From the NCBI GenBank assembly GCA_964403725.1, contig CAYOHI010000002.1, forward strand, positions 21,644-85,643: a stretch of DNA of 64,000 nucleotides, in the 5' to 3' direction. The number at the start of each line of letters is the position of its first letter. Positions within the stretch are counted from its first letter, which is position 1. The notes beneath the pieces were generated by a model. It saw nothing but the letters and a program-made list of their open reading frames with translations, did not search any database and was not told the origin of the DNA. Positions 3,772 through 61,940 of this stretch are shown here, one piece after another. This DNA is from an uncultured Candidatus Saccharibacteria bacterium (lineage in GTDB: Bacteria; Patescibacteriota; Minisyncoccia; Portnoybacterales; UBA2143). A program made the translations under genes and the position numbers.

Positions 3772-5835
3772 CTATTTTGGCCAGTTTTCGACCATTAAGA
3801 ATTTTCCTTCTTTAAATGGCAAGTTTTGATAGATTGCTTCAGTAACAAAAGGCATAAATGGATGCAGGAGCTTTAGAGAATTAACCAAAACAAAGGCTAG
3901 AATTTCCTTAGTTTGCTTATCACCCTGCTTTTTGGCAGATTCGATATATTTATCGCAGAAATCATGCCAGAAGAAATCATAGAGGATATGGGCAGCCTGG
4001 CCAAATCTGAATTTATTAAGTTCTTTATCAACTTTTTCTCTTGTCTGAGATAGTTTTTTCAGGATTCTCTTATCAGCTGCCGTCATGCGCTTGTTATTAG
4101 GCGCTCTTTTAGGCAGTTTAATCTTTTCACCTTCCATCTGCATCAGGGCAAACCGACTGGCATTCCACACCTTATTTGCAAATTTCTTGCCCATCATGAT
4201 GTTTTCTTCTGAAAAATGAATGTCTTGTCCGCCCAGTGACTGGTAAATCATGCCGAATCTGGTTGCATCAGCGCCGTATTGATTAACTAAATCAAGCGGA
4301 TTAATGCCAGTTCCTAAGGATTTAGACATTCTTCTGCCATCTTTTGTTAAGATAGTGGCGTGAATAATCACGTCAGTAAAAGGATTCTTTTTAGTTAATT
4401 CTAACCCAGAAAATATCATTCTAGCTACCCAGAGATTAATGATATCGCGAGCAGTGCTTAAAACATTGGTTGGATAGAATTCTTTCAAATCTTTTGTTTT
4501 TTTAGGCCAGCCTAATATGGCAAAAGGCCATAGGGCTGAAGAAAACCAAGTATCTAAAACATCAGTTTCGCCTTCAATAGGAATTTTGTGTCCCCACCAG
4601 ATCTGTCTTGAGATACACCAGTCCCTAATATTCTCGTGCCAGTCAAGGAAGACTTTTTCCCAGCGCTTTGGATGGAATTTAACCTGTCCGCTTTTAACTG
4701 CTTTGATAGCCTTTTCAGCTAGTTTATCCATCTTAACAAACCATTGATTACTAACCAGAGGCTCAATGATGCTGTCACAGCGATAGCAGGTTGGCACTTG
4801 GTGGGTATAATCTTCAGTTTTAACCAGTAAGTTCTTTTTCTCTAATCTTTCAACAACTTTCTGTCGAGCATCTAAGACAGTCAAGCTAGCAAAATCCTTA
4901 CCTGCTTTCTTAGTCATTCTTCCCTTATCGCTAATTACTTGAATTGATTCTAGTTCATGTCTTTGTGCAATTTCAGCATCAACAGGTGAATGAGCTGGGG
5001 TAACTTTAACAGCTCCTGTTCCAAATTCAGCTTCAATGGCTTTATCAGCAATGATTGGAATTTTGCGGTCAACTAAAGGCAGTAATACCTTTTTGCCAAT
5101 CAATTTCTTGTATCTCTTGTCATTAGGGTTAACTGCTACAGCTGTATCGCCAAGCATTGTTTCTGGCCTGGTAGTAGCAACTTGGATTGATTCTTTAGAA
5201 TTAACTAGAGGGTATTTAATATACCATAAATGGCTTTTCTCTTCTTTATGTTCCAGTTCTAGATCAGATAGGCTGGTCTGGCATCTTGGACACCAGTTAA
5301 TTACTCTTTTGCCTTTGTAAATCCAGCCCTTCTTGTAGAAGTGAAGGAAAGTTTCTTCAACTGCTTTTTGGTAATCAGGATCCATAGTAAAAGCAGTTCT
5401 AGACCAATCGCAAGAATTACCTAATTTTTTAAACTGATTTAGAATCAGGTTTCCATACTTATCTTTCCATTTCCATACTTCTTTAAGGAATTTTTCTTTG
5501 CCTAGGTCGTGTCGAGTGATGCCTTTTTTCTTTAACATTTTCTCAACCACGTTCTGAGTAGCAATACCAGCATGATCTGTTCCAAAAATCCATAAGGTCT
5601 TGTATCCCTTCATTCTTTTCCAGCGAATCAATATATCTTGGGTAAAGGAATTTAAAGCATGGCCCATATGCAATTCACCTGTTACATTAGGAGGCGGATT
5701 AGCAATAGTATATTTTTTAGCTGTCTTTTTAACTTTTAACTTATCAGGATTAAAAAAACCTGATTTTTCCCATAAAGAATAGATTTTGTCTTCAGATTCT
5801 TTGGGATTGTATGATTTTGGTAATTCGGTTGACAT
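3772..5835 (-). CDS. valS: valine--tRNA ligase (short, 687 aa)
   Basis: PPPNVTGELHMGHA (HIGH region) and KMSKSLGTG (KMSKS) class I signatures with a ValRS-type N-terminus. Only ~184 aa follow KMSKS. Confidence 0.85.
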   Translation of the reverse strand: MSTELPKSYNPKESEDKIYSLWEKSGFFNPDKLKVKKTAKKYTIANPPPNVTGELHMGHALNSFTQDILIRWKRMKGYKTLWIFGTDHAGIATQNVVEKMLKKKGITRHDLGKEKFLKEVWKWKDKYGNLILNQFKKLGNSCDWSRTAFTMDPDYQKAVEETFLHFYKKGWIYKGKRVINWCPRCQTSLSDLELEHKEEKSHLWYIKYPLVNSKESIQVATTRPETMLGDTAVAVNPNDKRYKKLIGKKVLLPLVDRKIPIIADKAIEAEFGTGAVKVTPAHSPVDAEIAQRHELESIQVISDKGRMTKKAGKDFASLTVLDARQKVVERLEKKNLLVKTEDYTHQVPTCYRCDSIIEPLVSNQWFVKMDKLAEKAIKAVKSGQVKFHPKRWEKVFLDWHENIRDWCISRQIWWGHKIPIEGETDVLDTWFSSALWPFAILGWPKKTKDLKEFYPTNVLSTARDIINLWVARMIFSGLELTKKNPFTDVIIHATILTKDGRRMSKSLGTGINPLDLVNQYGADATRFGMIYQSLGGQDIHFSEENIMMGKKFANKVWNASRFALMQMEGEKIKLPKRAPNNKRMTAADKRILKKLSQTREKVDKELNKFRFGQAAHILYDFFWHDFCDKYIESAKKQGDKQTKEILAFVLVNSLKLLHPFMPFVTEAIYQNLPFKEGKFLMVENWPK

Positions 5836-5929
5836 GTGTGTGTTTTTAATCTATATTTCAAAATATATCGACTAGTTCCTAATATGTTACTTGATAAACC
5901 AGTTTTTTTCAAGAAGGGGGATGTTAATT

Positions 5930-6211
5930 ATGGAAGAAACAGCGGTTGGAAACGCCTCAAGCGAGGTGGGTAGGAAAATTTATTCCTACTTGAGAACGGT
6001 GATCAAAGAGGTAATGGGCGTTAAGCTTGTTGCCGAACACACTACCTTTAATGCTGCGGAATGCGGGGAAATAAAGCGGCGGTTAATCGATGGGCCGCTC
6101 AACTGCTATTTCACAGACGGAAATGTGGGTAAAATCATGTCCGTATCAGATTTGTTTCTGATCTTTCGTGTACAACCCCCAATTCCGGAAGACCTCCCGC
6201 AGTATCGTTAA
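5930..6211 (+). CDS. hypothetical 94-aa protein in a GC-richer intergenic islet (could instead be a structured RNA region)
   Basis: Internal ATG at 5930 is preceded by AAGGGGGA. No recognisable motifs. Local GC is visibly higher than in the flanks. Confidence 0.25.
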   Translation: MEETAVGNASSEVGRKIYSYLRTVIKEVMGVKLVAEHTTFNAAECGEIKRRLIDGPLNCYFTDGNVGKIMSVSDLFLIFRVQPPIPEDLPQYR

Positions 6212-9154: not shown

Positions 9155-9592
9155 ATGGACATGCCGGAGAAAACACCTCTTTGGGAGGTGTTTGATGTTG
9201 GAAAGACAGCTTGGGATTTGGTCATTAAGGCAATAAGAATCAGATTGTCTATTCCCAGGAAAAACGATGATATACTGCGACAGCTTCGCTTGTGCGTGCA
9301 GGAAGCTGACTGTATGCTTAAAATGATCAAGGATACTAAGTCTAATTTGTCTAAGGTCTCTTCCATGATGACATGGAAGTCTAATATGGGAGAATACATC
9401 GCAAACTGTCTTTGGAGGTTAATGGACCGGCTGGAGGCTGATATCCCTAAAAATTGGCAAGAGAAAATCAATCGGACCGTAGAAAGACATTTGTGGTTCA
9501 TTGATAAATATATCTTTGATTACAGAAAGCGTTGGCAGGAGCTCCGGGGTAGATTCAAATCATTGGCATTTTTTGACAGAAGGGGGTGTTAA
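9155..9592 (+). CDS. hypothetical protein (GC-richer islet gene 1)
   Basis: Strong SD AAGGAGGT 6 nt upstream of the ATG. No recognisable domain. Confidence 0.35.
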   Translation: MDMPEKTPLWEVFDVGKTAWDLVIKAIRIRLSIPRKNDDILRQLRLCVQEADCMLKMIKDTKSNLSKVSSMMTWKSNMGEYIANCLWRLMDRLEADIPKNWQEKINRTVERHLWFIDKYIFDYRKRWQELRGRFKSLAFFDRRGC

Positions 9593-9922
9593 ATGTCTGA
9601 ACACAAGCACAATTGGAGAAAGGTGATGGTATCTAATCCAATAACAGACCCAAGGCAGTACGCCCTTAAAGGGCAAGAGGTTTTCGTTGGTCGGGTCTGT
9701 ATCAGATGCAACGAAGATGAACATCGTAGACCAGGTCCGCCCTGGCAAGTGTGCCATATGTGTGGGTCAGATATGACAGATTGCGGTCAAAAGGATGTCC
9801 TGACCCACCTTTTTGAGTGTAGTCGTACTGGCTGTGGTCATAAGTATCGTAAACGGGAATACGACCCAATTGTTCTGGAGGAACTAACTGTCGCTTCCAA
9901 AGAAGCTGAAGTGGTGGCATAA
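9593..9922 (+). CDS. hypothetical Cys-rich zinc-ribbon-like protein (GC-richer islet gene 2)
   Basis: SD GAAGGGGGTG upstream. CIRC...CHMCGSD...CGQ...CSRTGCGH Cys pairs. Followed by a hairpin. Confidence 0.35.
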   Translation: MSEHKHNWRKVMVSNPITDPRQYALKGQEVFVGRVCIRCNEDEHRRPGPPWQVCHMCGSDMTDCGQKDVLTHLFECSRTGCGHKYRKREYDPIVLEELTVASKEAEVVA

Positions 9923-9935
9923 CCAGGTCCCCTGC

Positions 9936-9964
9936 GCAAAGGCGCCGGGGGCCTTTGCATTTAT
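9936..9964 (+). terminator. putative terminator hairpin
   Basis: Stem GCAAAGGC/GCCTTTGC with loop GCCGGGG, followed by ATTTAT. Confidence 0.35.
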
Positions 9965-9989
9965 CCATCCTTTATGCCAGAATAAAAAT

Positions 9990-11429: not shown

Positions 11430-13286
11430 ATGTGCTATTCTTTTTTTATTGAAATGAAGAAAATACTATCAATATTTCTAATATTGTCCCTGGGAGGGGC
11501 TTTTAGTTTTCCGGCAAATGCCTTTGACAAAAAGGAGGATTTCCCTAAAATTGCCAACTACTATCTCCAGCCTCTGGTTCCAAAGGACCATTATGATGAT
11601 TTGGCTAAGTATGACCTATTAATCCTAGATGTAGACACCCAGACAATTGACACAAGCTTGTTTTCCCAAATTAAGCATTTAAATCCAGAAACCCAATTCT
11701 TAGCATACATCCCAAGCCAAAGCGTTAATACCCAAGATTTAAGTTCCTGGGCCAGATTCAGGAATATGACAAATGATAAAGTTAATCAAGAAAATTGGTG
11801 GCTCAGAGACAGTTCTGGAAACGTTGTTGGACTAGGAGAACCTTGGCCAACAATTAAATTTGTTGACCCAGGCAAAGGCTGGGCAGGTTATTTATCAGAT
11901 TTAGCTAAAAACGACGTGGCTAACAGGGATATTTGGGATGGCATATTCTACGATATGGTCTTTGCCAATATTGATTGGCTAAATAGCGGAGATATCGATA
12001 TTGACCAAGATGGGCAAAAAGATGATCCAAATTCAATCAATCAATACTGGCAAACGCACATCCAAGATCTATTAGATAAGACAAGTTCCAAGGTCAATAA
12101 AGTCATATTAATTAATCTAGATAAAATCAATAGTTATGAAAGTAATTTAGACGGATTTTTAATGGAGAATCTGCCAAGTCCTCATTTGGCAAGTAATTGG
12201 CCTGATTTAATTAATTACTATTTAAACAACCATTTTTCAAAGATAAAGATTATTAATGCTAATACGAATAACGCTGGTCATATGGGAAATTACCAGAAAA
12301 TGAGGTTTGGTTTGACCAGTACGCTTTTAGGAAACGGATATTATTCTTTCGATTTCGGAGATCAGAATCATGGCCAAGTCTGGTGGTATGATGAATACAA
12401 CATTAATCTAGGCAAAGCCATTTCAAATCCAGTCAATCTATTGGATCAGAATAATTCAGAAATTAAGCCAGGACTATGGCGAAGAGATTTTGAACAAGGA
12501 ATTTCTTTAATCAATTCAACAGGCCAAAAACAAACTTACGTTTTCCAAAACGAGCAATTTGAAAAAATTAACGGAACCCAGGACAGAAGAGTAAACAACG
12601 GGACTAAAATTAATTTGGTTACCATAGATTCAAACGATGGAATTGTCTTGCTAAAGACAAATCAGGAAATTAGGAATAGCGATTTCAAAAACGGAAGCTT
12701 TGTCAGAGTTTTTAACAAAGAAGGCCAACAGACCCAAAACGGATTCTTTGCCTTTAAAAGCCAGTTTCCAGGCAATGTTCAAATCTTAGTGACTGATCTG
12801 GATAATGACAATCAGGATGAAACATTGGTCAATGGCAATGGAATAATTTCAATTTACAAAAACGATAGAAAAATTAAAGAATTCAAGCCATACGATTTTG
12901 AAGGCGATGTTTTTGTTTCTGTTGGTGATATAGATGGTAATGGAACAAATGAAATTGTAACTGGCGTGGGTTTGGGTGGCGGACCACATGTAAAGATTTT
13001 AAATCAAAACGGAGAAACCATTAACGAATTCATGGCCTATGACGAGAGATTTCGAGGCGGAGTGAATTTATCTCTGGGAGACGTTAATGATGACGGATAC
13101 GATGAAATCATTACCGGAGCTGGGCCAACCGGCGGACCGCATGTCAAAGTATTCAACAGATACAACACAGTCTTAAACGAATTCATGGCATATGATGAGA
13201 ATAACAGGGATGGTATAATGATTATGAGTGATGATTTGGATAATGATAATATAAATGAAATTTTAGTTGGAATAATTAATTTTTAA
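11430..13286 (+). CDS. secreted protein with C-terminal FG-GAP/beta-propeller-like repeats
   Basis: Signal peptide. Repeated DxDxDGxxE-type loops (DLDNDNQDE, DIDGNGTNEIVTG, DVNDDGYDEIITG) each followed by GGPHVKxxN. Confidence 0.5.
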   Translation: MCYSFFIEMKKILSIFLILSLGGAFSFPANAFDKKEDFPKIANYYLQPLVPKDHYDDLAKYDLLILDVDTQTIDTSLFSQIKHLNPETQFLAYIPSQSVNTQDLSSWARFRNMTNDKVNQENWWLRDSSGNVVGLGEPWPTIKFVDPGKGWAGYLSDLAKNDVANRDIWDGIFYDMVFANIDWLNSGDIDIDQDGQKDDPNSINQYWQTHIQDLLDKTSSKVNKVILINLDKINSYESNLDGFLMENLPSPHLASNWPDLINYYLNNHFSKIKIINANTNNAGHMGNYQKMRFGLTSTLLGNGYYSFDFGDQNHGQVWWYDEYNINLGKAISNPVNLLDQNNSEIKPGLWRRDFEQGISLINSTGQKQTYVFQNEQFEKINGTQDRRVNNGTKINLVTIDSNDGIVLLKTNQEIRNSDFKNGSFVRVFNKEGQQTQNGFFAFKSQFPGNVQILVTDLDNDNQDETLVNGNGIISIYKNDRKIKEFKPYDFEGDVFVSVGDIDGNGTNEIVTGVGLGGGPHVKILNQNGETINEFMAYDERFRGGVNLSLGDVNDDGYDEIITGAGPTGGPHVKVFNRYNTVLNEFMAYDENNRDGIMIMSDDLDNDNINEILVGIINF

Positions 13287-13290
13287 AAAT

Positions 13291-13986
13291 ATGACAAAAA
13301 AATACAACAAAAACTATTGTGTCTTTCTAGCTTTCATCACCATTATTGCCATGGGACTTGTTTGGTATTACAGCCAGGCAACAGTTGATGAGCTTAATAT
13401 GCTAACTGGCAATATTAGCAGTCTTGTTATTGAGAAAAAAGACAAGCCAGCAGATGATCCGAAAGATAAAAACAATCTAGAAGAAGAATTTACCTGCAGC
13501 CAACCAGTCTTAAAGGTAAATTCAGCCGGATATTACTATGGACCCCAAGGAGACCAACTAGGGGTTGGTCCTTTGCCGCCCAAAGCTGGAGTTCAAACCA
13601 GCTATTGGGTTTTCTGGGAAATTTCAGATTTAAACGAAGATTTGGAAAACTTTGAAATTACAGCCCAATTACCAGACAGAGTTGTTTGGAATAATAAAAA
13701 AACTGCTTTAGCTGGTAGTCTGCAGTATGGCGAGATAACCAGAAAAGTAATCTGGACAGCTGATGAGGTTAATAAGAAAGGAACTTACAAAGTTGGATTT
13801 GAAATTGGCTTGATTCCAGAAAATGAAGATATAGGCAAAATCCTAAATCTATTGACTAATATCAAATACAATGGTATAGATAAGAGTTGTGGTGAAAAAG
13901 TTAGCGGTAATTTAGCTAATATCACTACAGATTTAAAAGAAGATAAGCTGGGAGGCAATAAAGGAACAGTTGTTCCTTTTGAGTGA
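13291..13986 (+). CDS. membrane-anchored secreted hypothetical protein
   Basis: N-terminal TM anchor, no recognisable domain. Adjacent to, and likely co-transcribed with, the FG-GAP protein. Confidence 0.4.
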   Translation: MTKKYNKNYCVFLAFITIIAMGLVWYYSQATVDELNMLTGNISSLVIEKKDKPADDPKDKNNLEEEFTCSQPVLKVNSAGYYYGPQGDQLGVGPLPPKAGVQTSYWVFWEISDLNEDLENFEITAQLPDRVVWNNKKTALAGSLQYGEITRKVIWTADEVNKKGTYKVGFEIGLIPENEDIGKILNLLTNIKYNGIDKSCGEKVSGNLANITTDLKEDKLGGNKGTVVPFE

Positions 13987-14037
13987 TAGTTGGTAAGAAT
14001 GATTCGTTTTTCGCAACACTAACTAAAGGGGGTAGTG

Positions 14038-14214
14038 ATGGCAGGAAAATGTGAAGGCGGATGTCCGTATTGCAGCGACGAAGAGAGATGTCCGACCAAA
14101 GAGGAGTTGGGCAGTTGCTGTAATCTTTCGGCAAAACGGCAGTGTTGTAGCGGCGACCAGAAAGAGGGTTGCTGTGGCGGCCAAAACTGTGGCGGAGGCG
14201 GCTGCTCGAAATAA
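14038..14214 (+). CDS. 58-aa cysteine-rich small peptide (13 Cys), not in the ORF track
   Basis: SD AAAGGGGG 5 nt upstream of the ATG. In-frame stop upstream at 14020. Sequence MAGKCEGGCPYCSDEERCPTKEELGSCCNLSAKRQCCSGDQKEGCCGGQNCGGGGCSK. Strong terminator downstream. Confidence 0.4.
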   Translation: MAGKCEGGCPYCSDEERCPTKEELGSCCNLSAKRQCCSGDQKEGCCGGQNCGGGGCSK

Positions 14215-14241
14215 GAGTAGCCAGTAAAACGGCATAAAAAG

Positions 14242-14270
14242 CGGCAGGGTATCCAAGACCCTGCCGTTTT
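14242..14270 (+). terminator. rho-independent terminator
   Basis: Stem CGGCAGGGT/ACCCTGCCG with loop atccaag, then TTTT. Confidence 0.6.
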
Positions 14271-14309
14271 CCTTGCTTAATAAATTTTTTTAAGATAACA
14301 TAATTCTAG

Positions 14310-15848
14310 ATGCTAACCAAAGACCAATACTATTTAAAATTAGGCAAAGCACCTGATTTGAAAGATTCTAAAGAGCGATTCATTTATCGTTTCTTTGAAA
14401 TTATACCTGGCACTCTAGCTTGGGCTACGATTCTAGGCGTGATTTTCTTTTCTTGGTATAGGCCAGTTTGGGTGGCTTTTTTCATTATTGCTTTTGACGT
14501 TTACTGGGTCCTGAAAACCATATATTTCTCAGTCCATCTGAGAGCCAGTTACAAGCAGATGAAGAAGAATATGAAGATTGATTGGTTTAGTAAAGTCAAA
14601 GAACAAAAAGACTGGCAAAGAATTCATCACCTATTAATCCTTCCTTTTTACAAAGAGCCATATGATGTGATTGCAAAAACATTACAAGCTTTAGTTGATT
14701 CTGATTATCCAAAAGACAAAATGATTGTTGTCCTGGGAGCTGAAGAAAGAGTTGGAAAACCAGCTCAAGAAATTTTAAAAAAAGCAGAAAAAGAATTTGG
14801 CCATAAATTTTTTAAATTCTTAGGGACAACGCATATTTTAAAAGAGGGTGAAATGGCTGCCAAAGGAGCGAACAGTACATGGGCAATCAGACAAGTCAAA
14901 AGAGAGATTATTGATCCTTTGAAAATCTCATATGAAGATATTGTTGTCTCATGCGGCGATGTTGATACTGTATTTTTACCTAAGTATTTTTCAATATTAA
15001 CTTATCACTATTTGACAGTTGATAAGCCAACCAGAACTGGTTATCAGCCAATTCCTGTTTTTAATAATAATATTTGGCAAACATCATGCTTTTCCAGAGT
15101 AGTGGCTACTTCAGGAACTTTCTGGCAAATGATTCAGCAAATGAGACCAGAAAGATTATCTAGTTTCTCTTCTCAATCATTGAGCTTCAAGACCTTGGTT
15201 GACGTTGATTTCTGGCCAGTTAACATGGTTTCAGAAGATTCAAGAATATTCTGGCAGAATCTACTTTACTATGATGGAGATTATAAAGTGGTTCCTTTGT
15301 ATTATCCTGTTTCAATGGATGCTAACTTAGCTGACAACTTTTGGCAAACTTCAGCCAATGTCTACAGACAGCAGAAACGCTGGGGTTGGGGAGTAGAGAA
15401 TATCCCATATTTACTATTTGGATTTTTAAAAAACAAGAAAATTTCTAAAAAAATTAAATGGCATTGGACTTGGGTCCAATTTGAAGGATTTTGGTCTTGG
15501 GCAACCAATGCCTTATTAATATTCATGCTTGGTTGGCTACCACTGTATTTGGGCGGAGATTGGTTCAATGCCACAATCCTTTCATACAATTTGCCGTTTA
15601 TAACCAGGACCTTGATGAACATCGCTATGATCGGCTTGATTGGCTCAGCAATCTATTCAACTTTACTTTTGCCAAAAAGACCAAAGGATTTTGGAATTTT
15701 AAAGCATTTAGGAATGGTTATCCAGTGGATATTAGTGCCTTTCACTATTCTGATCTTTGGGGCCATTCCAGGACTAGAAGCCCAGACTAGACTGTTACTA
15801 GGGAAATATATGGGTTTTTGGGTAACGCCTAAGAAGCATAAAAAGTAG
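14310..15848 (+). CDS. family-2 glycosyltransferase, processive type (membrane)
   Basis: D/D/D region (VVSCGDVDT) and QQKRW (QxxRW) motif, plus multiple TM helices. Cellulose/chitin-synthase-like architecture. Confidence 0.55.
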   Translation: MLTKDQYYLKLGKAPDLKDSKERFIYRFFEIIPGTLAWATILGVIFFSWYRPVWVAFFIIAFDVYWVLKTIYFSVHLRASYKQMKKNMKIDWFSKVKEQKDWQRIHHLLILPFYKEPYDVIAKTLQALVDSDYPKDKMIVVLGAEERVGKPAQEILKKAEKEFGHKFFKFLGTTHILKEGEMAAKGANSTWAIRQVKREIIDPLKISYEDIVVSCGDVDTVFLPKYFSILTYHYLTVDKPTRTGYQPIPVFNNNIWQTSCFSRVVATSGTFWQMIQQMRPERLSSFSSQSLSFKTLVDVDFWPVNMVSEDSRIFWQNLLYYDGDYKVVPLYYPVSMDANLADNFWQTSANVYRQQKRWGWGVENIPYLLFGFLKNKKISKKIKWHWTWVQFEGFWSWATNALLIFMLGWLPLYLGGDWFNATILSYNLPFITRTLMNIAMIGLIGSAIYSTLLLPKRPKDFGILKHLGMVIQWILVPFTILIFGAIPGLEAQTRLLLGKYMGFWVTPKKHKK

Positions 15849-16116: not shown

Positions 16117-16506
16117 TTAAGATAGAGGTTGGCAGAACTTCCTGAATTTGTACAGGGGTTCTGCGGTTTCGGCACAGGTCGTGCAATGCATTGTTTGCGG
16201 TACTTGCCTCAATCTAGGCGTGGGGATCTCGTCTTCGCAGACAATGCAGATGCCATATCGGCCTTCTTTTATTGCTCGAATAGCGTGACTGAAGGCGCAT
16301 AGTAGAGCATTTAGGCTTTGAATGCGAGCCGATGAAACATGAGAAACGAGCGAACAATTGTTTTCGGGTTTGCAATCCCGATCAGGTACCCGTAATTCCT
16401 GTTTCGCTTCTTCTAGTTTCTTTCGATAAAATCCCTGGACTGTCTCTAAAAAATCAATACTAGGTCTTCCAGGGTACCTTGCCTTAATTACTTCCAACGA
16501 ATCCAT
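16117..16506 (-). CDS. DksA/TraR-family C4 zinc-finger protein
   Basis: CIVC-x17-CTTC (CxxC-x17-CxxC) near the C-terminus. GC-richer than the flanks. Confidence 0.5.
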   Translation of the reverse strand: MDSLEVIKARYPGRPSIDFLETVQGFYRKKLEEAKQELRVPDRDCKPENNCSLVSHVSSARIQSLNALLCAFSHAIRAIKEGRYGICIVCEDEIPTPRLRQVPQTMHCTTCAETAEPLYKFRKFCQPLS

Positions 16507-32721: not shown

Positions 32722-34173
32722 ATGTCCCTTGATTCAGATAAAATTAAATACAACCAATTAGGATTCTTTCGTTTTAAAGAGTTCAAGAATAAATATCTTT
32801 TAACCAATGATGTTGGTCAATATTTATTTTTAACAAAAAAGGAATTTAAAAGTTTCTTGGAGAATAAATTGGAAAAAGATAAAGAGCCATATTTGTCTTT
32901 GAAAAAAAAGAATTTTCTAAAAAACGAATTAGACTTAACAGAATCAATTGACAGATACAGGTCAAAGAAGGATTTTCTTTTTGGCGGACCTAGTTTGCAT
33001 ATTATAGTGGTAACCTTGAGATGTAACCATAGATGCGTTTATTGCCATGCTAGTGCCCAGGCTATGGACAAAGAAGAGCTTGATATGGATGAAGTAACAG
33101 CCAGAGAGACAGTTGATAAGATTTTTGAAACAACTAGTCCCTTTGTAGCCATTGAATTTCAAGGCGGTGAGCCATTAGTCAATTGGCCAATAGTCAAATT
33201 TATTATTGAATATGCCCAGAAGAAGAACAGGAAAATAAAGAAAGATCTGGAGTTGCGCTTGGTCTCTAATATGTCTTTGATGACTAAGGAAAAATTTGAT
33301 TATTTGATCAAGAAAAAGGTGAGTATGTGTGTGTCTTTAGATGGATCTGAGAAAATACACAACAAAAACCGACCCTTGGTAGGCGATAAAACTGGGAGTT
33401 ACAAACATGCAGCCAAATGGGTTAAGAAATTCTATAAGCTCTATCCTCAATTGAGAAAGAAAGGATATATTTTCAAAATGGGCGTGGCTATTACAGTCAG
33501 TCGATTTTCACTGCCTCATTACAAGAAAATGGTTGATGAATTTATGAAATTGGGCTTTAACGATATTTACTTGCGTCCTCTAAATCCTTTCGGCTTTACT
33601 AAAAATCATTTTCAGAAAATCGGCTATGGCGTTAAGGATTACATGAAATTCTATAAAGGTGCTCTGGATTACATGATTGATTTAAACCTTAAGGGTAAGG
33701 AATTCAAGGAAAAAACAGCAATTACTTTTCTGACCAAAATTTTAACCAGAAATGATCCTAATCACTTAGATTTTCGCTCTCCTTGCGGAGCAGGTATTGG
33801 TCAATTAGCTTATAATTATAACGGAGATGTCTATACTTGCGATGAAGGAAGAATGCTATCTATGATGGATGATGAAAGTTTTCGTTTAGGCAATGTTAAA
33901 GAAAATACTTATCAGGAAATGGTAGGTAATCCAGTAGTTAGAACGATGTGCACAGCCTCTTGTTTAGAAGGCTTGCCTCATTGCAGTGATTGCGTTTACA
34001 AGCTCTATTGCGGGGTCTGTCCGATTTATAATTATTTTGAACAGGGTAATATTTTTGGCCAGATGCCGACTAATGAAAGATGCCAGATAAATATGGCTAC
34101 TTTGGATTTATTATTTGAAAAACTGCAAGATAAAAAAGCAGGACCTGTTTTGAAGTCTTGGCTGGATAAATAA
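32722..34173 (+). CDS. radical SAM/SPASM-domain peptide maturase candidate (HxsB/HxsC-like)
   Basis: CNHRCVYC (CxxxCxxC) cluster. C-terminal SPASM-like Cys array (CGAG..YTCDEG...CTASC...HCSDC...CGVCPIYN). ~85-aa N-terminal extension. Encoded directly upstream of the His-Gly-Ser repeat peptide. Confidence 0.75.
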   Translation: MSLDSDKIKYNQLGFFRFKEFKNKYLLTNDVGQYLFLTKKEFKSFLENKLEKDKEPYLSLKKKNFLKNELDLTESIDRYRSKKDFLFGGPSLHIIVVTLRCNHRCVYCHASAQAMDKEELDMDEVTARETVDKIFETTSPFVAIEFQGGEPLVNWPIVKFIIEYAQKKNRKIKKDLELRLVSNMSLMTKEKFDYLIKKKVSMCVSLDGSEKIHNKNRPLVGDKTGSYKHAAKWVKKFYKLYPQLRKKGYIFKMGVAITVSRFSLPHYKKMVDEFMKLGFNDIYLRPLNPFGFTKNHFQKIGYGVKDYMKFYKGALDYMIDLNLKGKEFKEKTAITFLTKILTRNDPNHLDFRSPCGAGIGQLAYNYNGDVYTCDEGRMLSMMDDESFRLGNVKENTYQEMVGNPVVRTMCTASCLEGLPHCSDCVYKLYCGVCPIYNYFEQGNIFGQMPTNERCQINMATLDLLFEKLQDKKAGPVLKSWLDK

Positions 34174-34237: not shown

Positions 34238-34558
34238 ATGAAAAAGACAAAATTACCTCAAATCAAGAAAGACATTAAGGCTTTCTTAACGAGCGAAGAA
34301 GGAAGGATAAATAAAAAGAAAGTAGCCAAAGTGGCTATGGGTCTTTTGGCTTTAGGAGTTGGTTTAGCTGGTGCTATGAAGCCAGATCCAACTTCAGCTG
34401 CCTGTTCTCATGCCTCTCACGGCTCACACGGATCCCATAGTTCCCACGGATCCCACGGCTCTCACGGCTCACACGGTTCTCATGGAAGTCATGGATCACA
34501 TGGTAGTCACGGCTCACACGGCTCACACGGCTCACACGGATCTCATAGTAATTATTAA
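34238..34558 (+). CDS. His-Xaa-Ser repeat precursor peptide (HxsA-like) with 14 His-Gly-Ser repeats
   Basis: 106 aa: Lys-rich leader, hydrophobic VAMGLLALGVGLAGAM segment, then SHASHGSHGSHSSHGSHG...(HGS)n...SHSNY. Confidence 0.65.
   Translation: MKKTKLPQIKKDIKAFLTSEEGRINKKKVAKVAMGLLALGVGLAGAMKPDPTSAACSHASHGSHGSHSSHGSHGSHGSHGSHGSHGSHGSHGSHGSHGSHGSHSNY
34406..34549 (+). repeat. in-frame 9-nt tandem repeat (TCN CAY GGN)x~15 encoding the SHG repeats
   Basis: Direct reading shows tctcacggc / tcacacgga / tcccatagt / tcccacgga... Third positions vary, so units are non-identical at DNA level. Confidence 0.8.
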
Positions 34559-41734: not shown

Positions 41735-42580
41735 ATGATGTTAAATATTAAAAAAATTAGGGTTAAGAAAATAATATCGCCGACAAATCTGGCTAATAGC
41801 GATTATGGCATAGATCCCTATGTCGGCTGCGAGATCGCCTGTTCTTACTGTTATGTCAGGTATATAGGCGATAGTAATGATAATAAGTGGGGCTCTTATG
41901 TTTTTGTTAAAGAAAATGCTCCTGATTTGATTATTGAAGATAAGGCTTATGATAATAAGACAATATCCATTGGAACCTTAACTGATCCTTATCAATTTGC
42001 AGAGAAAGAGTATGAAGTTACTAGAAAAATTTTGGAAAAATTAATTTCTTTTAACTCAGAGATCGCAATAATTACAAAATCTGATTTGGTTTTAAGAGAT
42101 ATTGATCTATTAAAGAAATTTAAAGATATTATTGTAGCTATTTCATTATCCTATGTTGATGACAAGATAAGGAAGGAATTAGAGCCAAAGGCTATAAGCA
42201 CAGAAAAGAGGATTAAAGTCTTAAAAGAATTGCATAGTAATGGGATAAAAACAGCTTTATTCATAGATCCAATATTTCCTGGCATTACTGACTGGAAAAA
42301 ACTTGTAAAATCTACCAGAAGTTATGTCGATAAATATCTATTTGAAAATCTGAATATCTATCCATCAACAGAAAATATTATCTTTAGCTTCCTTAAAAAG
42401 AATAAGCCAGAATTAATTGATGAATATAAGGAAATCTATTCAGACGAAAAGAAATATTGGCGAGGAATCGAGAGTGATATTAAGGATTATTGTGAAAAAG
42501 AAAAGATAAATTACGTTTCAACCATATTAAATTATTATAAATACTATCATTCAGATAGATTTTCTAGTAATAAGAAATGA
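41735..42580 (+). CDS. radical SAM protein, SplB/COG1533-like (DNA-photolyase-type radical SAM fold)
   Basis: SPTNLANSDYGIDPYVGCEIACSYCY (CxxxCxxC) near the N-terminus, as in SplB-family enzymes. Confidence 0.6.
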   Translation: MMLNIKKIRVKKIISPTNLANSDYGIDPYVGCEIACSYCYVRYIGDSNDNKWGSYVFVKENAPDLIIEDKAYDNKTISIGTLTDPYQFAEKEYEVTRKILEKLISFNSEIAIITKSDLVLRDIDLLKKFKDIIVAISLSYVDDKIRKELEPKAISTEKRIKVLKELHSNGIKTALFIDPIFPGITDWKKLVKSTRSYVDKYLFENLNIYPSTENIIFSFLKKNKPELIDEYKEIYSDEKKYWRGIESDIKDYCEKEKINYVSTILNYYKYYHSDRFSSNKK

Positions 42581-43452
42581 AAATAATATCAGGTTTTTCA
42601 AAAATAGAAGAAGTAAGTAATTTAATCAACAGAGGGGCTTCTGTTTTATTTTGTGGAATTTTATCAGAAGCTTTTAATAATCACAGGCCTAAATTGGCTC
42701 TTTTTAATTTGAAAGATTTAAATGAGTTAAGAAAAGCGACTAAAATAACGCATGATTTAAAAAAAGAAATATATGTTGTCGTTAATGCCATGGATTATGA
42801 AGACAAAGATAGAAAGAATGTTATTAAAGAGCTTAAGAAAATCGAGAGAATTAACGTTGATGGCCTAATAGTTTCAGACATCTCCATTCTCATGCTTATT
42901 AAAGAGAATGATATAAAAATTCCTGTGAGCTTGAGTAGCGTAGCTGCCTGTTATAATTCCATGGCTATTAAATTCTACGAGGATTTGAATGTCAGCTCCA
43001 TTATCCTGCCCCAGCAAATATCAGCTCCTGAAGTCAAGAAGATAAAAGAGTTAACCAATTTGCCCTTGGAAGTCTTTTATCGCAATAGCATGTTCAATAC
43101 CTGCCAGCAAGTGGATGGAATGTGTCTGTTATGCAATGTAATAGATCGCAAGAAATTCATTGTCAGGCCTAGAAGCAGTACAGATAGATTTAATGTTAAG
43201 TGCTTGAGGGGTAATAAGAATAATTTGGGCAGTTTAATCAAAGGCAATATTGATAGCGAGTTAAGATATATCTATGATACATATAATATAGGAGTGGAAT
43301 ATGTAAAAATGGGAGAAAGAGGATTGAAATCAGAATCTAAATACTTGGCAGTTGATATATTATCAAAGGTTATAAAAATACTAGGCAAGCATCCTAGTAA
43401 AAAAATGTTTATTAAAGAAGCAAAGGACATATGGAAAGAATTATATTGCTAG
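42577..43452 (+). CDS. peptidase U32-family protein (UbiU/RlhA-like large subunit candidate)
   Basis: N-terminus resembles the U32 'ELLAPAG..AGADAVYFG' start. EVFYRNSMFNTCQQVDGMC matches the U32 E-x-F...C-x4-G-x-C signature. Confidence 0.45.
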   Translation: MKIISGFSKIEEVSNLINRGASVLFCGILSEAFNNHRPKLALFNLKDLNELRKATKITHDLKKEIYVVVNAMDYEDKDRKNVIKELKKIERINVDGLIVSDISILMLIKENDIKIPVSLSSVAACYNSMAIKFYEDLNVSSIILPQQISAPEVKKIKELTNLPLEVFYRNSMFNTCQQVDGMCLLCNVIDRKKFIVRPRSSTDRFNVKCLRGNKNNLGSLIKGNIDSELRYIYDTYNIGVEYVKMGERGLKSESKYLAVDILSKVIKILGKHPSKKMFIKEAKDIWKELYC

Positions 43453-44195
43453 ATAAAGTTAAAAACTACCAAGAGATCAAAGATTTTGATCGTGTCTATC
43501 TTGGCAATGAATTTTGTCAGAATTTAATACCGACATTAAGCGATTTTAAATTACAAGTTAAAAAAATAAAGGATAAGGATTTTAGTTTTGTAACTCCGTT
43601 TGTAATTGATAAGAATATCAGTAAGCTGGAAAGGATATTCAAGTATTTAGACAAGGAATATGATGAGCCAGAGGTGATTGTAAATGATTTAGGAATACTA
43701 TATCTTCTTCACGAAAACTATCCAAAGATTAAAAAAGTATTTGGCAGAATATTGTATCCAAATATTTTCCTAAAGCCAAAAGATGAAATAATTAAGATTA
43801 AATCAAAATCTACAATTGAGTTGTTTAAGAAATATAATATAGATAGATATGAATTATCTGTTAAAAAATCAGATTTAACGCTTAATATTTTGGATAAACA
43901 AGTTAAATCAGAAAAAATGTTTAAGGATTTGAAATTCTCGCTCTATTATCCATACTTTCCAGTTTCAGTTACCAGAAAATGCAAGATGAGAAATCAGAAA
44001 GGCTTTGATGACTATGGAGCTTGCCAGCATGGATGTGCTGATAATCTATATGAAATAAAATACTCAGATTACCTTTGTCGGCACGCCATGGTTAATGATA
44101 AGATTTATATGAAAGGCAACGCATATTTTATCAAAAGCAAGAAACCAGCTAATATATCTAAATTAATATCCAGATTAGTTTTTCAATCAATGTAA
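43431..44195 (+). CDS. small U32-family protein (UbiV-like partner candidate)
   Basis: VYLGNEFC near the N-terminus (like UbiV VIYLGE..C). C-terminal C-x13-C-x3-C (CKMRN...GACQHGC) resembling the UbiV Cx12Cx3C [4Fe-4S] ligands. Confidence 0.4.
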   Translation: MERIILLDKVKNYQEIKDFDRVYLGNEFCQNLIPTLSDFKLQVKKIKDKDFSFVTPFVIDKNISKLERIFKYLDKEYDEPEVIVNDLGILYLLHENYPKIKKVFGRILYPNIFLKPKDEIIKIKSKSTIELFKKYNIDRYELSVKKSDLTLNILDKQVKSEKMFKDLKFSLYYPYFPVSVTRKCKMRNQKGFDDYGACQHGCADNLYEIKYSDYLCRHAMVNDKIYMKGNAYFIKSKKPANISKLISRLVFQSM

Positions 44196-44199
44196 TTTT

Positions 44200-45405
44200 A
44201 TGAAAATCATTAAAGATTTAGAAAAAATAGAAAAAAGGAATAAAGATTTCTTGCATTTGACAGCTAATGAGAATGTAATTTCAAATACGGCCAGGAAATA
44301 TCTATCTTCTGAATTAGGTAATAGGTATTTTTTAGGATCAGGGAAAAAAGGAATTGTTAGGAATAAAGCTTTGGAACTGTTGGGCTTGGAAGAAGTAGAT
44401 AAATTAGTAAATAAGGCTGAAGGATCTGCCAATAAGATACTAGGAGCATCACTGACATCTTTTAATCTTTTATCAGGAATCAATGCGATGACATCTCTAA
44501 TGCTAGCGATTTCCAAGCCAAATGATGTAATCATGACCTTGAACCCTGATTTTGGGGGTCACTTCATAACCAAGTCGATAATTGAAAGAATTGGACGCAA
44601 GCAGATTGTTACCCAGCACAAAGATAATGGAGAAATAGATATTAAAAAAACAGTAGACTTGTTAAACAAAAATAAATCTAAGGTATTGTACTTAGACAGT
44701 ATGTCAGTTTTAAATAGATTTCCATTGTCTGAAATTAGATCTATGATGAAAAATGAAGGTAGGTTAATTTTTGATGCAAGTCATACTATGGGATTGATTA
44801 TGGGAGGTCAATATCAATCTCCGCTAAAAGAAGGAGCTGATATTATTGTTGGTAACTCACATAAAACATTTCCCGGACCGCACAAGGCGATAATTGCTTT
44901 TAAGAATAAGAATTATGGAAAAAGAGTTATGTCTGTGATTAACAATTGTCTGATTTCTACTGTTCAAACGAGTAATCTAATAGCCTTGGCAATAACTGTT
45001 TTAGAAATGGAAAAGTTTGGCAAATCATATGCCAAGCAAATAATGTTGAATTCCCAAAAATTGGCAAAAGAAATAGAGAGCAAAGGCTATGACCTGATTA
45101 GATCTTCTAATAACAGCTATACTTATAACCATCAGATACATATTTCATTTAAAAATATTAAGGATTCAAAAACACTAATGGATAGTTTTTATAAAAACAA
45201 TATCAGTATTAATGTCATTAAACCTGGTCAGCCAAATTCATTTATAAGATTAGGAACTCAAGAGATTACTCGAAGAGGGATGAAGGAAAAAGATATGATA
45301 AAAATCGCTGAGTTTTTTGATAAATCTATTAAAAGAGAAAATATTAAAAACGAGGTCTTGAGGTTCAATAAAAAGTTTAAAAAGATACATTATTCTTTTG
45401 ATTAA
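44200..45405 (+). CDS. serine hydroxymethyltransferase-like PLP-dependent enzyme (fold type I)
   Basis: HLTANENVIS (cf. ELIASEN), DFGGHFITKS (cf. GGHLTHGS), NSHKTFPGP (cf. THKTLRGP, PLP-Lys). Confidence 0.55.
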   Translation: MKIIKDLEKIEKRNKDFLHLTANENVISNTARKYLSSELGNRYFLGSGKKGIVRNKALELLGLEEVDKLVNKAEGSANKILGASLTSFNLLSGINAMTSLMLAISKPNDVIMTLNPDFGGHFITKSIIERIGRKQIVTQHKDNGEIDIKKTVDLLNKNKSKVLYLDSMSVLNRFPLSEIRSMMKNEGRLIFDASHTMGLIMGGQYQSPLKEGADIIVGNSHKTFPGPHKAIIAFKNKNYGKRVMSVINNCLISTVQTSNLIALAITVLEMEKFGKSYAKQIMLNSQKLAKEIESKGYDLIRSSNNSYTYNHQIHISFKNIKDSKTLMDSFYKNNISINVIKPGQPNSFIRLGTQEITRRGMKEKDMIKIAEFFDKSIKRENIKNEVLRFNKKFKKIHYSFD

Positions 45406-46333
45406 GATGAATAAAATTAAGATTTTAACCCCGATTGATAATGTTGATGAATTTGAATTACTATCATCAGCTGGTGCTGATGAATTCTATTGCGGGGTCA
45501 TTATAAATGACAAAAAATATAACAGCGATAGAATTGGAAAACAGAAACAGGAAAATATTTCTGGGATCAGTGAATTGAAGAAATTAGTCAAAAAGATAAA
45601 AGATAATAAAAAAGATTTGTATCTAGTTTTGAACGCCCAATACTTATCTTCAAGAGATATAAATGAAGCTGGAAGAAGAATAGATGCCTTTAAGAAAATA
45701 GGAATAGATAATTATATAGTATCTAACTTGAATCTAATAGATAAGGTAAAGGATAAGGATATCAATATCATTATCAGTTCCTTTTTAGAAGCTAAAAATG
45801 TCGAAACGGTAAAATTTCTCAAGAAATTCAAGCCAAAGAGAATCATATTAGACAGGCAGATTACAGCCAGTGATTTAAAAGCCATAACATCTGAATTTCC
45901 AAGATTAGAATTTGAAACATTTATCATGGAAGCAGCATGCCGGAGCCTGGACAGTTACTGCAACCGACATATTTTCAACTATAAAAAACATACTTGTAGA
46001 GAAAATTTCAAAATAGACAACAAGAAAGGATTAACAAGGTCAGAATTGAATACGATTACTTCAAGATTAAAGATGCCGATTGTTAATTGCGGTATTTGCG
46101 CTTTATACCAATTTAGGAATTTAAATGTTGAATCGGTTAAGATAGTAGGGCGCGGCTATCCAACTAAATGGAAAGTTAAAAATGTTAAGCATGTCAGAGA
46201 TGCCTTGGGCGTATTAAATGACACTAAGAGCAAAAAAGAATATCATCAGAAATGCCTAAGTCTGTTTAAGAAAACTTATAATTTCCCTTGTAATAAAGAG
46301 TATTGCTATTACCCTCATTTTTTTAAAAATTAA
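45398..46333 (+). CDS. peptidase U32-family protein (second large-subunit candidate)
   Basis: ILTPIDNVDEFELLSSAGADEFYCGV start, FETFIMEAACRS...C and CGICALYQF Cys-containing segments. Confidence 0.45.
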   Translation: MIKMNKIKILTPIDNVDEFELLSSAGADEFYCGVIINDKKYNSDRIGKQKQENISGISELKKLVKKIKDNKKDLYLVLNAQYLSSRDINEAGRRIDAFKKIGIDNYIVSNLNLIDKVKDKDINIIISSFLEAKNVETVKFLKKFKPKRIILDRQITASDLKAITSEFPRLEFETFIMEAACRSLDSYCNRHIFNYKKHTCRENFKIDNKKGLTRSELNTITSRLKMPIVNCGICALYQFRNLNVESVKIVGRGYPTKWKVKNVKHVRDALGVLNDTKSKKEYHQKCLSLFKKTYNFPCNKEYCYYPHFFKN

Positions 46334-46337
46334 GATT

Positions 46338-47051
46338 ATGGAAAATGTCTTGTTAATCAACAGAATAGAAGATATTAAATTATTAACCGATAAGTATTCT
46401 CGTGTTTATCTTGGCAACGAGTTCTGTTCTAGATTGTTGCCGACTGAATCTGAGATAAAGAAGATATTAGCTGTAGTTAAGAAAGAAAAACTAAAATTAA
46501 CTATTGTCACATCATTTGCCGGTGAAGATGAATTAAAAAAGATAAAGAAGTTTTTTAGCATAGTTAATAAGCATGAGATGTTAGATGAAGTAGTTGTAAA
46601 TGATTATGGAATCTTGAATCTTTTAATCAATAAATATCCAAAAGTTAAATTGGTTGCTGGCCGGGCTCTATCAAGATTCTATAATTTTGATAAAAAGAAT
46701 TATTTGTATGATAAGATTGGAATAAGGAGGTTTGAATTCGATAGTAATCGCATTAATGAAGATGCTTTAAAAAATATATCTTCAGTAAAATTTTCCTATT
46801 ATCATCCCTATTCTATCCTGAATACGACGCGCTATTGTTCAGTAGTAGACAAGAAAAACAAAAGTAGTAATATTGGTATTCTAAAATGCAATCAGGAATG
46901 TCAAAAAATCGGTTCTCTAAAGCTGAAAAACAAGCTTATTAGAAACAAATTAACTCTTAGAGGAAATGCAATATTTATTAATAATAAAGAAGATAAGTTA
47001 AAAGTCATAAAGAATATTAAAGCGATCGATCGTTTAGTATTTCAAAATTAA
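46338..47051 (+). CDS. small U32-family protein paralog (second UbiV-like candidate)
   Basis: RVYLGNEFCSRLLP and C-x16-C-x3-C (RYCSVV...ILKCNQEC). Paralog of 43431..44195. Confidence 0.4.
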   Translation: MENVLLINRIEDIKLLTDKYSRVYLGNEFCSRLLPTESEIKKILAVVKKEKLKLTIVTSFAGEDELKKIKKFFSIVNKHEMLDEVVVNDYGILNLLINKYPKVKLVAGRALSRFYNFDKKNYLYDKIGIRRFEFDSNRINEDALKNISSVKFSYYHPYSILNTTRYCSVVDKKNKSSNIGILKCNQECQKIGSLKLKNKLIRNKLTLRGNAIFINNKEDKLKVIKNIKAIDRLVFQN

Positions 47052-47053
47052 TT

Positions 47054-47905
47054 ATGCCTAATATCTTAATAACAAATACTTGCAATCAGAAATGCCCATA
47101 TTGTTTCGCCCGAGATGAAATGAAGAATAAGAAAAAGCCGAATGAAATGTCTTTTGGTGATTTTAAAAAGATAATCAATCTTTTCAAGAAAGACGAAGAG
47201 CGATGCATCCGGTTAATGGGCGGAGAACCAACCCTTCATTCTAAATTTAAAGAGATTGTAGATTATTCCCTAAACGAAGGTTTTCTTGTCCAAATTTTTA
47301 CCAATGGTATTTTTAATAATGATATTTTAGAATTTCTTTTAAGCAAGAAAGATTTGATTAAATACAGTTTCAATCTTAATCATCCCAATAAATACGATAA
47401 AAAAACATGGGAATTGATCAATAGAAATATTAAAGAATTATCTGTCTTCAAGAAAGTGCTTGTTGGAGGAGTGGTGTCTGATAAGAATTTCAATATAGAC
47501 TACTTAGTAGAGATTGCAGATAAAAATAAGATAATAAATATTGCTTTGCGCCCAGATAATACTGTTGATAAGAATAAGGATATTGCAAAAACAATAATTA
47601 GAGAAATTAAAAAAGTTGATAAGAAAAAGTTTAATATTTGCTATGGTTGCGGCTTGTCAAAAGATGATTTAACGGATAATCAAATAAAGTTAATCGAAAG
47701 TCATTGTCGCCAAGAAGTGAAGTATGGATGTGATGGTAATAGCGGGCGTTTTGATATTGATGTGGATCTATCTGTCTTTCGTTGTTTCCCTTTATCAAAA
47801 TGGCATGTTAAAAAAATTGATGATTTTAATAATTTAGAAGAAATAGAAGAATACTTTAATAGTTTAATTAGGAACAATAAGGTTAATTGTGCTTTGATTG
47901 AATAA
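47054..47905 (+). CDS. radical SAM protein with C-terminal auxiliary Cys motifs
   Basis: ITNTCNQKCPYC (CxxxCxxC) and GGEPTLH. C-terminal CYGCG...C...YGCDGNSG. Confidence 0.7.
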   Translation: MPNILITNTCNQKCPYCFARDEMKNKKKPNEMSFGDFKKIINLFKKDEERCIRLMGGEPTLHSKFKEIVDYSLNEGFLVQIFTNGIFNNDILEFLLSKKDLIKYSFNLNHPNKYDKKTWELINRNIKELSVFKKVLVGGVVSDKNFNIDYLVEIADKNKIINIALRPDNTVDKNKDIAKTIIREIKKVDKKKFNICYGCGLSKDDLTDNQIKLIESHCRQEVKYGCDGNSGRFDIDVDLSVFRCFPLSKWHVKKIDDFNNLEEIEEYFNSLIRNNKVNCALIE

Positions 47906-57541: not shown

Positions 57542-57543
57542 AT

Positions 57544-61938: not shown

Positions 61939-61940
61939 TT

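Follow-up and report, generated by a model that had tools for sequence, protein, structure and literature searches.

The plus strand of the window, by which we mean the whole 64,000-nucleotide stretch of DNA analyzed here, contains a 58-codon open reading frame (ORF) at positions 14038..14214 that looks like a real coding sequence by its codon statistics. No homolog of its Cys- and Gly-rich product turned up in the databases that we searched. The reading that we tentatively prefer, at somewhat less than an even chance, is that of a small gene, complete in itself and acquired recently, whose product is a metallothionein-like peptide rich in thiols and located in the cytoplasm. Provided that the peptide is made, a Patescibacteria (CPR) genome would encode a metallothionein-like protein without sequence relatives, which would bear on metal or thiol-stress handling in minimal-genome episymbionts. 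The locus would then also be a clean case of an operon that has received a self-contained mini-gene, made up of a Shine-Dalgarno (SD) motif, an ORF and a terminator, whose signals are foreign to a host in which most translation starts without an SD. If unexpressed, it simply adds another case to the orphan small ORFs, which are common, in this instance on a small insertion. The locus is made up of the following elements.

13987..14309, unstranded: intergenic spacer of 323 nt, a lineage-specific insertion with a GC-rich core at about 14023-14270
14020-14022, plus strand: TAA stop upstream of, and in frame with, the 58-codon ORF
14025..14032, plus strand: SD-like AAAGGGGG, 5 nt 5' of the ATG of the ORF, by direct sequence reading
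14038..14214, plus strand: 58-codon ORF with ATG start and TAA stop (14212-14214), product MAGKCEGGCPYCSDEERCPTKEELGSCCNLSAKRQCCSGDQKEGCCGGQNCGGGGCSK
14238..14270, unstranded: hairpin of 13 bp (9 strong pairs) with a 7-nt loop, -21 kcal/mol, an apparent bidirectional intrinsic terminator
14277..14304, plus strand: promoter-like TTAATA-16-CATAAT, a consensus match only, ending 5 nt 5' of the ATG of the downstream GT2-like gene

The ORF is intact from the SD to the stop codon, with no frameshift or premature stop. The in-frame upstream stop described in an earlier, sequence-only reading of this DNA is present at 14020-14022, and the strong terminator described there corresponds to the 13-bp hairpin at 14238-14270. 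U-runs flank this hairpin on both strands (TTTTCCTT on the plus strand, CTTTTTAT on the minus strand), and it conforms to the definition of a Rho-independent terminator, a GC-rich stem-loop with a U-run directly after it. It begins 24 nt beyond the stop codon of the ORF and reads as a probable terminator on both strands. The same reading had called the SD strong; AAAGGGGG is indeed found at a distance of 5 nt from the ATG, but is atypical for this genome, as an SD-like motif is missing from the 18 nt next to the start in 41 of the window's 46 ORFs of 200 aa or more, and the upstream regions are A/T-rich. A -10-like box is located just 5' of the ATG in some genes, for example at 34238 and 14310. 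These boxes and the scarcity of SD motifs suggest that the organism may initiate translation independently of an SD or on leaderless transcripts. A consensus-based look at the locus found no promoter-like site 5' of the 58-codon ORF.

The length of the ORF is by itself unremarkable, with P ~0.10 on the plus strand and 0.27 in any frame of composition-matched random sequence. Its Cys codons are distributed in a different manner: all 12 TGY triplets found between 14000 and 14236 share the frame of the ORF (12/0/0 split, P ~6e-6). At local composition, at least 12 Cys in 58 codons corresponds to a binomial P of 2e-8, and the maximum reached in 3000 composition-matched Markov simulations was 8 Cys, never 12. 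In addition, T accounts for only 5% of codon position 2. As in real genes, composition is flattest at position 3, and position 1 is rich in purines and in G. These observations support the plus frame 14038..14214 as the best reading of the DNA at this locus.

The predicted peptide has a mass of 5.9 kDa and a pI of 5.2, and contains 12 Cys (20.7%) and 12 Gly (20.7%). The sequence-only reading had counted 13 Cys (22%), which is wrong, and about 21% Gly, which is right. The Cys residues are located at positions 5, 9, 12, 18, 27/28, 36/37, 45/46, 51 and 56, in the pattern C-x3-C-x2-C-x5-CP ... CC-x7-CC-x7-CC-x4-C-x4-C. The CC and CxxC pairs reported before can thus be specified as three CC pairs (27/28, 36/37 and 45/46) and a single CxxC (C9-P-Y-C12). 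One Tyr is the only aromatic residue, and His is absent. The N-terminus (MAGKCEGG) is hydrophilic, and we found neither a hydrophobic N-terminus nor a transmembrane segment (maximum Kyte-Doolittle value over 15 residues 0.08, GRAVY -0.77), in agreement with the claimed lack of a signal peptide. An AlphaFold single-sequence model was uninformative, its pLDDT of 52 being too low for a fold search. The segment CPTKEELGSCCNLSAK within the predicted 58-aa product is a candidate target for proteomics.

We compared the peptide to known metallothioneins. The SmtA/BmtA family and MymT are small, Cys-rich, cytoplasmic stand-alone metallothioneins that act in metal binding by thiolate clusters or in the buffering of oxidants. 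Low mass, high Cys content, CC/CxC/CxxC motifs and few aromatics characterize the metallothionein class (PMC11237414), and the peptide shares these generic traits (5.9 kDa, 20.7% Cys, CC/CxxC motifs, 1 Tyr, 0 His). The earlier guess of a metallothionein-like peptide therefore stands at the level of loose composition, but finds no counterpart among profiles, as no metallothionein family (for example PF02069, Metallothio_Pro) or any other Pfam or NCBIfam model matched at E values up to 10. Like the bacterial SmtA/BmtA, Pseudomonas PmtA and Mycobacterium MymT proteins, the peptide is small (these have ~50-80 aa), Cys-rich and poor in aromatics. It differs from them in having no sequence relationship to them by these scans, no His ligands, and three CC pairs at 9-residue spacing in place of CxC/CxxC knots, and no SmtB/ArsR-type regulator is located near the ORF. 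Whereas PmtA has been reported in ~90% of Pseudomonas species (PMC11237414), the peptide is confined to a single species.

No relative of the peptide was found by any search. Scans of Pfam, NCBIfam (E up to 10) and PHROGs returned no family, and the sole PDB match by sequence was a designed repeat protein (E 0.82). A word-indexed search of 5.8 billion protein clusters contained no protein with three 5-mers in common with the peptide. Exhaustive phmmer against 1.84 billion representatives gave one match, the SprB/Ig-repeat protein P0001, which we judged to be spurious and compositionally biased. Exact-sequence look-ups of the 58- and 59-aa products and back-translated scans of metagenome and viral contigs yielded no relative, and tblastn/blastn against phages and plasmids produced chance matches of 25-38 nt only. 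The Cys motifs of HdrB-type CCG domains, DnaJ, rubredoxin and WhiB-like proteins resemble parts of the peptide by eye and were rejected for want of a profile match. Conservation of the Cys pattern had been named as a check on the peptide; by tblastn, the pattern is not conserved in any related genome, and the ORF is missing in all syntenic relatives.

The insertion is flanked by genes whose order is found elsewhere. Upstream, a secreted GHL15/FG-GAP protein (Pfam domains; signal peptide by eye) is followed by a 231-aa protein with an N-terminal membrane anchor (13291..13986), and the 323-nt spacer separates the gene for the latter from the GT2-like gene (14310..15848). The product of 14310..15848 is a multi-pass membrane protein with weak CelA/GT2 resemblance. 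The evidence for its earlier GT2 label is a sub-threshold CelA match (E 4e-5) and a QxxRW-like motif seen by eye; Pfam returned nothing. DksA/TraR, RecG and pilin genes lie beyond it. We assembled 160 loci around homologs of the GT2-like protein (L001-L080 and L086-L165); five further loci (L081-L085) represent the same strain as the window and were not counted as relatives. In L003, L006, L012 and L086, the 231-aa gene ends 2-11 nt 5' of the GT2-like start, without a spacer. The order GHL15-like, 231-aa, GT2-like is kept in the first three, and L086, where the downstream protein is 83% identical, has only the C-terminal end of the 231-aa gene on its contig. In L001 and L002, a ychF or mazG-like gene abuts the GT2-like gene instead. 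Since the flanking genes are only 2-11 nt apart in relatives, the 323-nt spacer is an insertion specific to this species. The ORF was absent next to the GT2-like gene from all non-strain loci among L001-L165, which thus contain no syntenic ortholog. By blastn against the window and the 160 loci, the insert has no second copy; within the available sequence it is thus neither a repeat nor a MITE.

Two assemblies, JGI 3300009374 and ENA ERZ23499079 (sample SAMN11854493), span the whole insertion with 100% identity. Logan SRR9166041 is likewise 100% identical and covers the insertion in part, ending at 14129; ENA ERZ23498905 (sample SAMN10231923) ends at 14038 and holds only the first 52 bases of the insertion, again at 100% identity. 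A chimera or assembly artefact could be ruled out, as the insertion is identical in independent assemblies (two full, one partial). Because the copies are all identical, they contain no polymorphism for a dN/dS or purifying-selection test. The only differences between the window and same-strain assemblies are 10 clustered substitutions within 31 nt (12986..13016), where the gene for the 618-aa GHL15 protein encodes FG-GAP repeats, and further upstream L084 diverges to 97%. This suggests repeat-mediated variation or assembly differences in the GHL15 gene.

The insert differs in composition from its surroundings. Its GC-rich island has 57% GC, compared to 34% for the window, and the GC3 of the ORF is 52%, compared to 30% for the host. 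At 54%, the GC content of the ORF is higher than its amino-acid content by itself would predict (48.6 +/- 2.1%), and its synonymous-codon likelihood is 3.7 sd below that of the same peptide written in host usage (z = -3.7). Genes of the window are of the Patescibacteria/Parcubacteria type, and the closest relatives of the downstream protein all come from such metagenome-assembled genomes (MAGs). Together, GC3, codon usage, GC content and the atypical SD suggest that a self-contained cassette was acquired recently by horizontal transfer.

Translation, metal or redox chemistry, horizontal origin and transcript architecture are what we infer for the preferred metallothionein-like reading. In this model, the spacer would be a recent, species-specific insertion of a composition foreign to the host, which carries a self-contained gene with its own SD, ATG, 58 codons, stop and hairpin terminator. 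As there is no promoter-like site before the ORF, transcription would occur by read-through from the upstream GHL15/231-aa genes; translation would be led by the SD, and the transcript would end at the gene's own hairpin terminator. Translation would yield a slightly acidic 5.9-kDa peptide, soluble in the cytoplasm. By the most economical mechanism, its 12 thiols, laid out as an N-terminal C-x3-C-x2-C-x5-CP segment, three vicinal CC pairs 9 residues apart and two more Cys, would form thiolate clusters that coordinate soft metals (Zn, Cu, Cd) or an Fe-S cluster, or would serve as a thiol buffer. The peptide would thus work like a metallothionein, outside every known metallothionein family. In relatives, the GT2-like gene belongs to a tightly coupled operon, from which the insertion would separate it, and the promoter-like site at 14277..14304 could provide this gene with its own, nearly leaderless transcript after the inserted terminator.

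It is possible, though rather unlikely, that the insert is a silent foreign scrap: a small gene or gene fragment from a donor of ~50% GC that is unexpressed or without function, its only effect being the hairpin that separates the GT2-like gene. The presence of the insert in one species only, its absence from relatives and the lack of homologs would all be expected of such a scrap, as would GC3 and codon usage that have not drifted toward the host. The missing promoter-like site also favors it, and the SD, which 41 of 46 host genes do without, may not work here. Other small inserts occur at the same junction and are compatible with the insertion of scraps: a 150-nt spacer upstream of the GT2-like gene in L007 (~5854..6000) contains a long inverted repeat of the gccccgtagag...ctctacggggc type, and hairpin repeats (ggaagtcgtacttcc) precede the GT2-like gene in L002 (~4810..4956). 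The junction 5' of the GT2-like gene thus seems to be a hot spot for small, unrelated insertions. A silent scrap is harder to reconcile with an ORF that is intact from SD to stop and with the full identity between independent assemblies over the bases that they cover; a tiny CPR genome would moreover be expected to shed useless DNA fast.

We next considered the RNA. The plus strand folds into a stable structure, with z = -5.8 for 13990-14285 (terminator included) and z = -3.96 for 14000-14236, without the terminator, where none of 200 shuffles was as stable. The minus strand is not unusual (z = -1.15 and +0.14). When synonymous codons were permuted with the peptide kept, z was -1.9 for the ORF alone (10 of 300 permutations) and -3.2 in context (2 of 300), and shuffling the order of codons gave z = -2.0. 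Some of the plus-strand structure therefore exceeds what the peptide dictates, while much of its stability is due to the ability of Cys, Ser, Gln and Gly codons to pair with each other. The word AAACGGCA / AAGCGGCA is present three times, independent of frame. Rfam 15 contained no gathering-level match to the region, the best sub-threshold hit having E >=0.69, far under the cut-offs. We rejected a housekeeping noncoding RNA, as there is no Rfam match and as the fold is not the single long hairpin that 6S RNA needs.

A stable mRNA, an RNA of dual function and an element that acts purely as RNA would all fit this structure. That the plus-strand transcript of ~14000-14270 is a small RNA or cis element of three to four hairpins plus the terminator, with an incidental or dual-function ORF, appears unlikely to us. 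The difference in fold stability between the two strands speaks for it, as do the better folding of the native synonymous codons compared to their permutations, the thrice-repeated, frame-independent word, and the GC-rich island within an AT-rich genome. Such an element leaves unexplained the perfect 3-nt phase of the 12 TGY triplets and the 5% T at one codon position; Rfam gives no match for it at E values as high as 10, there is no related sequence for covariation, and part of its stability comes from complementary Cys/Ser/Gln/Gly codons, the codon-order shuffle giving a z of only -2.0. RNA structure cannot yield the TGY phase signal, which indicates DNA that codes for protein or did so until recently.

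Four ORFs of at least 57 aa overlap at the locus, among them two candidates for another coding frame.

14051..14227, plus strand: alternative-frame ORF with GTG start, 58 aa, Ala/Arg/Val-rich, the frame called by the JGI pipeline
14023..14256, minus strand: antisense, codon-aligned ORF of 77 aa (TTG start) or 70 aa (ATG at 14236), Ala/Thr/Leu/Phe-rich and hydrophobic

Gene callers disagree here: JGI predicts 14051..14227, and the ENA annotation contains no call. It seems quite improbable that one of the two represents the real gene, the antisense ORF as a small membrane or toxin-like peptide, or the ORF chosen by JGI. The antisense ORF has the same 3-periodicity as the 58-codon ORF, which it shares by construction, and a transmembrane-like stretch (maximum Kyte-Doolittle value over 19 residues 1.91). 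Its start is however located within or directly after the hairpin and its T-run, no promoter-like site was found for it, its product is absent from the protein collection, and its codon positions are reversed compared to normal genes, with a flat position 1 and a skewed position 3. The sequence-only reading had listed two minus-strand ORFs, 13925..14134 and 14023..14256, as less plausible; both exist, and both are indeed less plausible, lacking start signals. The JGI ORF has a GTG start with a weak SD and contains no TGY triplet, and a homolog search with its product returned only itself, from the same contig. Neither candidate has a family match. The locus is one where three annotation pipelines disagree and where codon-phase statistics can choose the frame without homology.

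The sequence-only reading had offered a bacteriocin or RiPP-like precursor as further options. We found no metal-responsive regulator, efflux or transporter gene, redox partner, and no peptide-modification or export gene near the ORF. The context lends no support to the bacteriocin option, as there is no leader, signal peptide, ABC/C39 transporter or immunity gene nearby. Radical SAM enzymes are encoded farther downstream in the window.

32722..34173, plus strand: HxsB radical SAM maturase (TIGR03978, 527 bits, cut-off 370), the nearest radical SAM gene, ~18.5 kb from the ORF
34238..34558, plus strand: HxsA4 repeat peptide (NF038313, 72 bits, cut-off 55) with ~15 GSH/SHG repeats after an N-terminal membrane-like segment
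41735, plus strand: 'mobile pair B'-like (NCBIfam, below curated cut-off)
47054, plus strand: generic radical SAM matches only
48955 and 49816, plus strand: STM4011-like (NCBIfam, below curated cut-offs)
50703 and 55303, plus strand: SPASM/W-cofactor-maturase-like (NCBIfam, below curated cut-offs)
56648, 58266 (double domain), 60167 and 61021, plus strand: HxsC/HxsC4-like (NCBIfam, below curated cut-offs)
61941, plus strand: radical SAM candidate by its CxxxCxxC motif alone

The region 41735..62870 comprises 21 tightly packed genes on the plus strand, of which ~12 encode products with an N-terminal CxxxCxxC radical SAM motif, interleaved with U32-peptidase-like and glycosyltransferase-like genes (by eye). 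This density of radical SAM genes is unusually high for a small CPR genome.

A mobile, dual-purpose cassette is slightly less probable still than a gene in another frame. It would combine a new thiol-rich metallopeptide family, or a substrate encoded in trans for one of the ~12 radical SAM enzymes, with a selected structured mRNA; acquired horizontally by an ultra-small CPR symbiont, it would rewire an exopolysaccharide-type operon. We consider it very unlikely that the peptide is a RiPP precursor, cross-linked via its Cys residues (as thioethers or disulfides) by a radical SAM enzyme encoded elsewhere in the window. SCIFF/ranthipeptide precursors are ~45-60 aa long; their N-terminal part is charged, and Cys and Gly abound in their C-terminal part. 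The peptide is similar to these and other precursors of Cys-rich radical SAM RiPPs in size and layout, its Cys/Gly-rich C-terminal half resembling SCIFF/ranthipeptide cores, and HxsB and ~12 more radical SAM proteins are at hand in the window. SCIFF/ranthipeptide precursors however adjoin a SPASM maturase, whereas the ORF has no maturase, protease or exporter within 18 kb, and the peptide has no leader and matches no precursor-family model (NCBIfam, E up to 10). Instead of an adjoining radical SAM/SPASM maturase, as expected for precursors of the SCIFF, ranthipeptide, sactipeptide, CcpA, CefA or CXXX-repeat types, the ORF has GHL15, the 231-aa protein, the GT2-like protein, DksA/TraR and RecG encoded around it. 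HxsB, 18.5 kb away, adjoins its own His-Xaa-Ser substrate HxsA4, and the cluster at 41.7-62.9 kb, with its U32-, glycosyltransferase- and HxsC-like genes, looks by eye like small-molecule or glycan chemistry. The radical SAM genes are located 18-49 kb from the ORF in conserved-looking clusters, and an ORF on a species-specific insert cannot be integral to a conserved pathway.

A Cys-sensing leader, in which ribosomes stalled on Cys codons would control the terminator and hence the GT2-like gene, scarcely merits consideration: the layout of Cys-rich ORF, terminator and gene would fit, and mycobacteria are known to use polycysteine short ORFs as cysteine-responsive attenuators (bioRxiv 10.1101/834739), but the 5' arm of the terminator (14238-14250) pairs only with its own 3' arm, which leaves no antiterminator, alternative pairings involve the 3' arm only, 24 nt separate the stop codon from the hairpin, an ORF of 58 codons in which the Cys are scattered is unlike short polycysteine leaders, the downstream gene encodes a glycosyltransferase-like membrane protein outside Cys metabolism, and relatives express the same GT2-like gene without such a leader. 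The mycobacterial ORFs are leaderless, contain a compact polycysteine tract, unmask a downstream ribosome-binding site and control Cys-metabolism loci (bioRxiv 10.1101/834739). Our ORF resembles them as an unannotated, Cys-rich short ORF 5' of another gene, whereas leaderlessness, the compact tract, unmasking of a ribosome-binding site and a Cys-metabolism target are all absent here.

Other GC-rich islands are found in the window. The HxsA4 repeat region is the most GC-rich of them (58%), and 9155..9968 and 16117..16506 have 52% GC each. The former of these two contains small ORFs, one of 145 aa and a Cys-rich one of 109 aa (9593..9922), with no Pfam or NCBIfam match, and the latter encodes a DksA/TraR-type zinc-finger protein (PF01258). 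Upstream of ychF, the sequence is unlike that in L001 and may represent another variable or acquired segment.

A small Cys-rich orphan of another Patescibacteria MAG invites comparison. Locus L025 encodes, at 9668..9913 on the minus strand, a 66-aa peptide, MEKYKCEKCG...(GKCCG)x5... (P0002 / MEK7452683.1), for which a homolog search with the (GKCCG)n peptide returned only the query itself, a cluster of one. Both are small Cys/Gly-rich orphans of Patescibacteria, and their likeness (tblastn E 9e-4 within a 1-Mb set) derives from composition only. MEK7452683.1 has an N-terminal CxxC and C-terminal CCGG repeats, is encoded by a perfect 15-nt tandem repeat and is located directly downstream of a glutaredoxin-like ORF, a different genomic context. 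Unrelated Cys/Gly-rich orphan mini-ORFs may thus recur among Patescibacteria.
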